Source: Phoronis australis
Lineage: Eukaryota; Animalia; Phoronida
Assembly (NCBI GenBank): GCA_002633005.1
Contig: NMRA01000676.1
Coordinates: 92,658 to 156,657, forward strand
DNA: 64,000 nucleotides
Direction: 5' to 3'
Position 1 is the first letter of the stretch, and every line of letters starts with the position of its first letter. Shown piece after piece: positions 54,301 through 57,300 of this stretch. The position numbers and the translations under genes are program-made. The notes beneath the pieces were generated by a model that was not told where the DNA came from, ran no database searches, and saw only the letters and a program-made list of their open reading frames with translations.

Positions 54301-57300
54301 AGTGGGCTTCGTTGATTTTTGCTGTGTGTCGGGTCTGGCTGGGGGCGTCGCTCACCGAGCATTACACTGGCAACTCTCATTGGCTCGTACTTTTTTTGTA
54401 GTGGTCTGCTGCTGACCAATAGCTATCCATATCTGTGAATATCTATTGTTAAATCAACAGATGAACATGAGTTAGGTTCAAATAAAGCTTACAATTTTTC
54501 TTGAAAGTCTTCAAGCCGAGTGACTTAAAATTTTCCATGCCAGTTGATGTATAGTCTTTATAGCTCTCACTGGAAGCATTGTGGTAGATTCAGCTCCCGG
54601 AAATACGTTTCTGAGTTTGATAAACTTGAATGCAACTGTAACTTTTCTGGTCAGTGAAAGGCTGATATTGTGTTGGTGGTAAGTATTCTTGAGGATGAGA
54701 TCCCATCTTAAGCACTCAGTGGCTCGGTGAGTGTTTTTGGTGTGGCACTTTGCGACTTACTTTTGATGTAGTGCTTAGTGTTGGGACGAGGCTGAGAGCA
54801 ACTACGTTTTGGAAGGTTTGGTTTGCTTACCTGTTGCATCACCTTTGTTTTTAACGAAAGCACTGTTGACAAAAGTAGATGCTAGTGCCCATCCGGTAGC
54901 CCGACACGCCCACACACATGCTCGCCAGCATTCATTGCACCATCAGCCATTTGATTGATACCTGTCATGTTGGTCGTTTTCCATGTGACTAACACGATCA
55001 TGTCTTATAATGTCTTAGGTGCATCGCGGGGATTTGCATTTGTGGAGTTTCATAACGTGCAAGACGCCCAGCGCTGGATGGAACAGAACAAGGTTTTATC
55101 TTCAATTCAATCTGTCTGTCTCTCGGTATAGTAGAACGCCGCGGCCATCACGTGCCCGGCAGTGTGGTCGTAGCCTGTGCTCGAATGACGACTGGCTCCC
55201 AGCGGAGTCGGTCGTCCTGGCCAGAGAACTCAGACCTTCAGCCGAAGTGTGAGGTTAGGCTAACTTAACTGAGCGTAGGCAGAAAACCCAGTGAATAGTG
55301 ACTGCGAGTGTGTGGGGGAAACGTGTGAATTTTGAACAAAATGTTTTGAATCACTTGCCAAACGCTTTAGTTTGTAATCTGGACACCCAATTTCTTCATT
55401 CATTACAACATCAAAGACCATGAATTTAAATTAAAATTATGTTGTTTTGAATAAAAAGTAAGGAAAGGGATTCCAACTATTTTTGGATTCCAGATTTTGA
55501 AGTGTTCAGGCAAAGCTAAATTTGAGCATTCAGTTATGATGGCGTGCATGTTTCAACCTATCCTGGTGTATGAATGATCATTGAATGTCTGAAGTGAAGG
55601 TGAACACCTCTATTTAAAGACTCGGTTTAAAAATTTAAGTAGATCTCAGTTTGTATCTTGGCCATGCCACTACAAATATGTCATGTAAGAGCAGAGAATC
55701 CATGTCTGGAGTTTTTTTTCTTGTAATTAACTTGGCATGAAAACAGATGGTCTTTGAAATACAAATCTGATGCTGTTCCGTGGTGTGAATACCACCTCTG
55801 TGTTAATTGATATCGGGGACTGGATTTTTCTGTATTAGTACATCACCATCAATTAATATGTCTTTGACAATTTCGAAACAAATGACTAGGTTTTCTTTCA
55901 GGTAATGAGGTCCCCTTACTGGCTATGCAACTGACAATAGTATGTCCTATGACAGTCTTGCTCCGAGTTTGCAAGAGCTGAAGAAGAGATTTCAGCTTTT
56001 ACCGTCATCACTTTGTTTTGCTATGAGTTCAGAAGGCTCGGAAATCTGGAGTCACTTGTGACGAGTCTTAAGATAATTCGAGCTACTTTGAAAAAGACAA
56101 CGGCAATCGATTTGATAACGGTAAAAGTTGATCACTAGTTTCTGAGATAGCAATTAAGTACCCGATCTTGGGCTTTGTTCTTTGGTCACCTTGTGGAGAA
56201 TCCTAAATAAATGGACTATGCCCTGAATAGTGGGCGGTGCCCTGAATAGTGGGCGGTGCCCTGAATAGTGGGCGGTGCCCTGATTAGTGGGCGGTGCCCA
56301 GTCGAAGCTGTCCATCTCCTCCATCTTTCAAGTGTGTCTCTTGCAGCTTTACTACTCCCACTGGAGTCCTAAGGTTATTTTCTTTTGTTGATGCGCGGTA
56401 AGCAGAGTTGGATCTGGTATAGTTACTCGTGTACTTTACCCTTGTCTTGTTTATTCCAGGGCCAGCTGTTCATTGAAGGTCAGCGGGTTTTCATGCACTA
56501 TAGCCACTCGCGCGAGCGTAATATGGAGCAGGGTGGGCCCGGAGGCGGGGCTGACACAAGGCATGACCCAAACAAGGGTGACTGGATCTGCTCAAAGGTG
56601 AGGTGAAACAAATTCATGTTGTTACACAAATGGTCGCCTTTACTTTGTTATGGACACTGTCATTCCTATGGTGACGTTTTGACAACTCTGTCAAAATACA
56701 CCGTAGATTTCGTTGTCATGACAGCTGGTGTCCTTTGTTTAACACGATGCTGGTGCTACTAAGTGCAGTTAGTAAATCCATCTTTACTTCAGCAATGCTT
56801 AGGAAATCTGTATACCATATTGTTCATCTACAGTCTAGATGTTGCTCACTTTTTATGTGCCCACATATTTATATGTGGACGCATTATGCCGTCATCGTCC
56901 GGGCGGCGTCCGTCCAGCGTCCGCTGCTCTATCTCCGAAACCCTTTGACATACGTTCATGAAATTTGTCACATATGCTCCAATCATGAATGGGATGGCAT
57001 GAGCGAACTTTCGGACGGATCAGACTACCGGTGTGCCCCTTAGTGGCAATTTTTGTTTTTATGCGCCCACATATTTATATGTGGACGCATTATTTACGCT
57101 TACCTTTGTATCTTCAAAAGTCCTGAACGGATTTTCGTGAAATTTGGTATGTAGGCACCTATTAGTGAGATGATGCTATCCTCCCGTTTTCGGATGGACT
57201 CGACGTAGTTTGCGCCACCTAGTGGCCATTTTTACTGTTTTCAAGTCTGTTTTTTTGCAACCACCCCTCTATCAACCAAACCGCTCAAAGAATGATTGTG

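Follow-up and report, generated by a model that had tools for sequence, protein, structure and literature searches.

The window, the whole stretch of 64,000 nucleotides that was analysed, carries at its 3' end an RBM5/10 gene of 14 exons (52945-63977) that form a single open frame when joined; the names of its RRM1, zinc finger, RRM2 and OCRE-like parts were read from the sequence. A later exon of the gene matches 19 proteins (37 candidates), and the nine with names are of the mollusc RBM5 type, with 49-63% identity, which makes the organism lophotrochozoan-like. For the 74-nt exon at 55019-55092, the best single-stretch PDB matches are RBM5 residues 139-160 and RBM10. On this match, the assignment made in an earlier note on this DNA holds: by sequence, the exon is the equivalent of vertebrate RBM5/RBM10 exon 6, an orthologous 74-nt RRM1 exon. 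A sequence check also bore out how the exon had been described, namely as 74 nt between AG and GT, with all quoted strings at their quoted places and a TGA reached upon skipping. This TGA is the sixth codon of exon 7, far upstream of the later junctions. Intron 5 or intron 6, if kept, would also bring early stops. The features of the region are as follows.

54213-54282, + strand: exon 5 equivalent, 70 nt, with a strong donor; junction 53820>54213 in 8, 9 and 8 reads of three RNA runs
54283-55018, + strand: intron 5, kept in most transcripts (RNA depth 0.59-0.86 times exon depth; contigs in runs X1 and X3)
54319-54350, + strand: 5' arm of a predicted duplex bridging intron 5, partner at about 54877-54910
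54349-54369, + strand: 5' arm of a helix predicted to form with 54717-54733 (12+5 bp, p 0.97 and 0.88), no listed variant inside
54915-54925, + strand: 5' arm of helix P1 of a proposed clamp, carrying the pair-breaking allele 54921 C>G
54986-54995, + strand: branch-point-like TGACTAACAC; TGACTAAC occurs once on the + strand of the window
55019-55092, + strand: 74-nt exon of RRM1, corresponding to exon 6 of vertebrate RBM5 and RBM10, with one difference in organism B (a second species)
55093-55098, + strand: authentic donor GTTTTA, its junction used in RNA
55093-56459, + strand: intron 6, kept in most transcripts (RNA depth 0.90-1.13 times exon depth; contigs in X1, X3 and X6)
55093-55296, + strand: conserved predicted structured block of intron 6, multibranch (from folds and the organism B alignment)
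55122-55127/55268-55273, 55141-55147/55165-55171 and 55236-55239/55244-55247, + strand: predicted helices of this block
55125-55133, + strand: conserved motif G/GTATAGTA, candidate competing or decoy U1 site (bulged at +4) or RBM5/10 binding site, unchanged in organism B
55187-55199/55204-55216, + strand: predicted 13-bp hairpin of the block (z -3.63)
55304-55314, + strand: 3' arm of clamp helix P1, outside the part alignable to organism B
56460-56597, + strand: exon 7 (end of RRM1, start of the zinc finger), holding the skip-induced stop; from sequence and RNA

Of the 14 donors of the gene, the authentic one of intron 6 is predicted to pair most weakly with U1 (-4.1 kcal/mol), and the donor of intron 5 is strong (-11.1); pairing was scored against the end of U1. 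The branch point before the 74-nt exon is near-perfect, and the pyrimidine tract after it is poor. Rfam gave no match in 48000-64000 of the window or in 11 orthologous loci, ARAGORN gave none at the locus, and the region of introns 5 and 6 is single copy in the window, with one to three contigs per run at 80% likeness. This lack of matches and of multiple copies in the sequences covered speaks against an intronic non-coding RNA or repeat (snoRNA, tRNA, SINE), and likewise against the multicopy repeat for which the earlier note had allowed.

Some observations concern other parts of the gene. The early exons are present in near-identical tandem copies (49811-51909 and 51912-53979; 49 mismatches and 49 gap columns over 2108, with an N between them at 51910), which most likely reflect a haplotype that the assembly left uncollapsed. 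At 62911-62976, part of the OCRE-encoding exon is present again in tandem. This copy, either a real duplication or an assembly slip, has a GTAACAG donor of its own, 73 nt beyond the first, whose use would lead to a stop. The zinc-finger exon 58244-58304 ends in a GC donor (GC-AG intron), as judged from the open frame. Intron 6 contains a 19-nt tandem repeat (56212-56306), and later introns hold dispersed repeat-like sequence (56850-58100) and another tandem array (58440-58700).

Three raw RNA runs with the same species label, all from one study, were sampled at 18-19% each. They gave 272, 258 and 118 mapped reads (648 in total, stranded, library type unspecified), all in sense; the depth is low, and short exons may lose junction reads. 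Intron 4 had a depth of 0 in all three runs. Intron 5 reached 0.86, 0.72 and 0.59 and intron 6 reached 0.90, 1.13 and 1.04 of the mean exon depth, and the start of intron 7 had depths of 0, 1.3 and 4.1. Junction reads numbered 8, 9 and 8 for exons 4-5 (25 in total), 1, 6 and 0 for exons 5-6 (7) and 3, 2 and 0 for exons 6-7 (5), with 13, 6 and 9 loose ends for exons 7-8 (28). By these junction counts, roughly 70-80% of the molecules are therefore unspliced at introns 5 and 6. Differences of the A>G type in the reads look allelic.

Assembled contigs agree with the raw reads. In X1 and X3, runs without an RNA label on record whose contigs proved spliced, intron 4 is spliced out and the sequence continues through intron 5. 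The X1 contig then branches, with intron 6 kept (depth 92) or spliced (82). A contig of X2, which may be DNA, spans the stretch without a break. In X6, from a second species, a low-depth contig (4.7) with intron 6 kept stands beside spliced forms (11.4 and 19.7). Among arthropod-like contigs of transcript type, L002, L022 and L023 keep only intron 6 (L002 equals the spliced L019 apart from this intron), and L001 and L058 keep only intron 5. Five further loci (L013, L032, L042, L046 and L065) keep both introns, with coding flanks continuous where covered, and may be genomic. Introns 5 and 6 are specifically abundant on the sense strand while their neighbours are spliced, and form a retained-intron pair.

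The earlier note had centred on skipping of the exon. What is seen is double intron retention, and the skip junction 54282>56460 was found in none of the three raw runs (at least three reads needed) and in none of five contig runs, all without NMD block. At the same threshold of three reads, the raw runs showed no junction from or into the 55125 site. A pile of read starts at 55125 (five molecules in X7) was set aside, as three similar piles occur at unremarkable places in X8.

A degenerate exon pattern retrieved 86 metagenome loci (30 groups besides the window, with taxon labels read from peptides); it had no match in sets of genome contigs and viral contigs. All 86 loci translate as a 74-nt exon, and none of their intron-6 donors is GTAAG or GTGAG. 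GTAYAGT, a motif chosen by eye before testing, occurs within the first 150 nt of intron 6 in 9 of the 28 lineages with at least 150 nt of this intron, window included (0.47 expected, P 4e-10), and GTACAGT was the most shared 7-mer in an unbiased count. The full GGTAYAGTA is found in seven (the window, L014, L038, L048, L049, L084 and L086). Both vertebrate-like genomic loci (L060 and L024) hold the motif core with the flanking G and A missing. The motif is missing in 19 of the 28 lineages, including L008, L081, L085 and all arthropod-like ones, which have other non-consensus donors. The annelid-like group carries GGTAAGAG instead, without exception among its 31 loci, between +50 and +67 and in all frames; GTAYAGT or GGTAAGAG lies 33-135 nt behind the donor. 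An alignment was made of 19 loci, namely L081 and 18 of the annelid-like group, from which duplicates, near-duplicates and one short locus had been removed. In it, a 6-bp hairpin comes after GGTAAGAG; 98% of its cells are paired, and it shows two double changes, both in one sequence. Upstream of the exon, TGACTAAC is shared by the window, L014, L048, L084 and L060. Going by these alignments, the conserved elements are short linear splice-signal-like motifs, which the earlier note does not contain.

Further features were seen in single groups. Exon 6 of the L003 group (31 loci) is almost invariant at synonymous sites among the 19 aligned loci; its introns barely align beyond about 100 nt, and predicted exon hairpins show one-sided changes only. 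The arthropod-like L011, L028 and L050 share GCAGTAAGA downstream of the donor in intron 6, a possible donor-like counterpart, and a TGTGTTGGT-type motif precedes the acceptor in several arthropod-like loci.

The 55125 site is predicted to pair with U1 at -7.1 kcal/mol, with eight pairs and a bulge at +4, a U1 register found in the accessible text of Tan et al. (PMC4856993). In 27 of the 28 single loci, the strength of the best downstream U1 site does not exceed that found in shuffles (P at least 0.05; window 0.27), and the case for a decoy therefore rests on shared sequence and not on energy. Splicing at the site would add 11 codons in frame in the window and would give a stop or frameshift in most other loci, which fits a non-coding role. 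As far as sequence goes, a conserved splice-site-like element is present inside the retained intron, and its decoy activity is a candidate function only.

Our best reading is that the locus would be an invertebrate version of the exon-6 switch of vertebrate RBM5 and RBM10 whose main mode is intron retention, likely via a competing U1 site. We give a probability of about 0.6 to the view that most transcripts of the window's RBM5/10 gene keep both introns around the 74-nt exon, likely as a dosage switch that protostomes and vertebrates both have from their common ancestor. A more far-reaching version, which we would call possible with the odds against it, is a bilaterian-old brake, in which a bulged U1 decoy, a weak donor and a near-perfect branch point would park exon 6 in a stalled, RBM5/10-sensitive pre-spliceosome and detain both introns, lineages tuning site access with RNA folds of their own. 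As for the mechanism in the best reading, U1 would bind the downstream site better than the authentic donor, and U2 would be held on the strong branch point, at which RBM5/10 is known to stall spliceosomes; RBM5 arrests them just after U2 binds the branch point, according to the part of PMC13041897 that is accessible. The exon would be defined without being spliced, both introns would stay, and the RNA would be held in an unproductive state, with rare skipped or extended products carrying early stops and going to NMD. The fold at the start of intron 6 (first 200 nt) may serve as a modifier specific to the lineage: with 55122-55127 paired, it would cover half of the downstream site and tune access to it.

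The rival that survives best, itself a tentative one, takes GTAYAGT and the CU-rich stretch before it as a binding site for RBM5/10 (zinc finger on GG or GGU, RRMs on pyrimidines) or for another protein, so that retention would be direct protein feedback and not U1 competition. It is compatible with our best reading. Pyrimidine-rich spacers do precede the motif in most loci, and in the accessible texts CLIP places RBM10 close to the splice sites, within conserved parts of introns 5 and 6 (PMC5737846), and GG is recognised by RBM5 RRM1-ZnF1 (PMC10349855). However, what the annelid-like group has in this position is the canonical donor-like GGTAAGAG (31 of 31 loci), and the vertebrate-like copies lack the GG.

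The motif can also be read as a pyrimidine tract plus YAG. It could then act as a 3' splice site of the decoy or recursive kind, located 39-141 nt behind the donor, which would be blocked once U2AF binds there. All nine loci have a pyrimidine-rich spacer followed by TAYAG, a stop codon follows the AG in five of the seven full-motif loci, and decoy sites promote retention in SF3B1, as described in the accessible text of PMC6097662. Nevertheless, we regard this as unlikely, given that no RNA junction into the motif was found and that a donor-like site is suggested both by the GT that invariably precedes it and by the annelid-like GGTAAG.

Intron 6 shows a predicted fold next to the exon. On the sense strand, 55093-55300 folds at z -3.10, and sliding windows at 55100-55299 reach z -4.3 and -3.8; such values are not unique in the gene, as tandem-repeat windows and 56600-56799 score equally low. 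Organism B aligns over 55064-55296, a range that does not cover intron 5, with 23 other letters (21 listed) and four inserted; identity is about 88% in the first ~200 nt of intron 6, and its exon 6 has one difference, against 6 in the first 30 letters of exon 7. In the predicted fold, 55238/55245 is a compensatory change from U-A to A-U, the changes at 55147 and 55191 keep G-U pairs, all 13 pairs of the 13-bp hairpin are kept, and by inspection the change at 55140 would mend a C.A mismatch. Pairs are broken at 55114, 55161 and 55232 and in the weak helix 55218-55222/55258-55262, and, taken together, the tendency of the changes to avoid pairs is not significant (P 0.08-0.12). Within the species, none of the listed variants falls in 55093-55296 (4.3 expected, P 0.014; 13 further variant rows lay beyond the list). 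The largest gap between variants, picked after the fact, does not reach significance (P 0.08). Since blastn of introns 5 and 6 against the 86 loci gave two short matches (E 0.23), none of them in the structured block, the fold appears lineage-specific, its sequence conservation reaching no further than organism B. The block also contains, at 55258-55278, branch-point-like GCTAAC/CTTAAC followed by TAG, probably not conserved, because it is altered in organism B. Just behind the exon-7 donor, 56600-56799 folds on the sense strand at z -5.9 and -4.5, and has some read depth and clustered differences in run X9.

In intron 5, nested long helices are predicted across 54319-54369, 54717-54733 and 54744-54910, which may form a zipper-type stem. 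The bridging duplex, absent from the earlier note, reaches -40 kcal/mol and was matched in none of 158 shuffles. For the complete intron 5, folding does not exceed that of shuffles (z -0.25; minus strand -2.12). Its 20 listed variants do not avoid predicted pairs (P 0.28), and one lies inside the 112 nt of the named helices, where 3.0 are expected. By inspection, the alleles at 54787 and 54872 keep G-U pairs, and 54842 C>G would lengthen a helix.

The structure on which the earlier note had built its explanation is a different one, a long-range clamp that would loop out exon 6, hide its branch point and donor in helices and drive NMD-coupled skipping. That the exon is under unusual splicing control and adjoins structured RNA is upheld here, but the exon-enclosing clamp is near chance. 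The region does fold better than shuffles (54890-55330, z -3.74 on the + strand and -1.15 on the - strand), with a signal that comes from intron 6. The arms are complementary, and in fold ensembles of four region sizes the 11-bp pair reaches p 0.69-0.88 and the ATTCATT pair about 0.7; even so, the 11-bp helix was equalled in 17% of 300 shuffles (P 0.17) and an extended, composite clamp in 3.9% of 153 (P ~0.04). The bridging duplex of intron 5, which is stronger, competes with this extension for 54899-54909. The hairpin proposed around the branch point is present (13 of 14 pairs, one A.C, p 0.89), though with a z of only -1.73 (11 of 200 shuffles). The donor, said to pair with AAAACC, is instead predicted to pair with 55076-55084 of its own exon (p 0.93), in a region that folds no better than shuffles (z +0.22). 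In the window, branch point and donor are indeed predicted to be paired (p unpaired 0.01-0.02), but one or the other is open in many of the 27 loci folded, so that hiding them is not general. The enclosing pair mass of the window (27.8) is mid-range for the 27 loci (0.7-62.8), the enclosing helix beats all 40 shuffles in 2 of 26 loci, both times in low-complexity runs, and the 19-sequence consensus contains no enclosing helix. Nor do the clamp arms show conservation in the sequences covered. The allele 54921 C>G, found in 9 of 13 reads in X7 and 0 of 7 in X8, breaks a clamp pair, 106 unlike letters replace 55297-55386, with the 3' arm, in organism B, and other lineages gave no match. The P2 3' arm (55289-55296) is unchanged in organism B, NMD could conceal skipped RNA, and close relatives might have a compensated version. 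With an 11-bp helix that is at chance level, that is disrupted by a common allele and whose 3' arm cannot be aligned to organism B, we judge the clamp weak: it is probably incidental, and improbable as the explanation of the retention.

That retention is a passive result of one weak donor and slow splicing, with no regulated switch and with fold and motif as bystanders, is quite improbable: the donor is the weakest in the gene, but weak donor, motif and retention recur across distant animals, intron 5 is also retained despite its strong donor, and the intron-6 block is free of listed variants.

Together, the locus looks regulated, though probably not by the proposed clamp; it would be a known switch in altered form, with one testable conserved element. 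If the reading as a retention switch is true, the RBM5/RBM10 exon-6 control point dates to early bilaterians, and the main output of this control shifts from skipping to intron retention. Invertebrates and vertebrates would have in common one intronic element of 7-9 nt, testable in existing human RBM5/RBM10 minigenes, and, if the brake is real, blocking the 7-mer, which is also present in intron 6 of mammalian RBM5 and fish-like RBM10, should raise the output of the RBM5/RBM10 tumour suppressors. The locus is also a case of linear signals that are conserved while the RNA folds surrounding them are specific to a lineage.

Among known systems, exon-looping long-range RNA structures reportedly control unproductive splicing in BRD2/BRD3 and ATE1, and are said to have complementary arms on both sides of the regulated exon, as in the window; in contrast, the window's arms are short, near chance and polymorphic. 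For human RBM5, the names RBM5+6 and RBM5+5+6 stand for transcripts retaining intron 6, or introns 5 and 6. Both variants are named in the accessible text of PMC2174484, and, as in the window gene, intron 6 is retained behind a weak 5' splice site, less retention going with more total transcript (PMC10325915, in part). In the literature found, this retention is described for mammals only, and no cis-motif or invertebrate counterpart is named. Our search, which covered mostly openly accessible main texts, found no invertebrate RBM5/10 retention switch, GTAYAGT motif or structure as described here; the supplement of PMC5737846 may show binding sites over the motif.

The closest relative is the vertebrate auto- and cross-regulation of RBM10 and RBM5 by alternative splicing coupled to NMD (Sun et al., 2017, PMC5737846; see also PMC10445532 and PMC8501971, all as far as accessible), which shares the 74-nt frameshifting RRM1 exon, the conserved flanking intron ends and the early stop upon skipping. 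The accessible text of Sun et al. (2017) mentions neither "retention" nor "structure", whereas the visible product of the window gene is double intron retention. Retention around PTC exons and decoy-site retention are both known kinds, described in the accessible texts of PMC4737145 and PMC6097662, respectively. The window gene, which serves RNA processing, resembles the splicing-factor genes with detained introns around PTC exons (PMC4737145) in the abundance of the two introns on either side of an NMD-linked exon, but the exon in the window is coding, and its loss rather than its inclusion makes the stop. Like intron 4 of SF3B1 (PMC6097662), intron 6 is a retained intron of more than 1 kb with a conserved, rarely spliced site inside; SF3B1 has a cryptic cassette deep in the intron, whereas the window has a single donor-like site close to the real donor.
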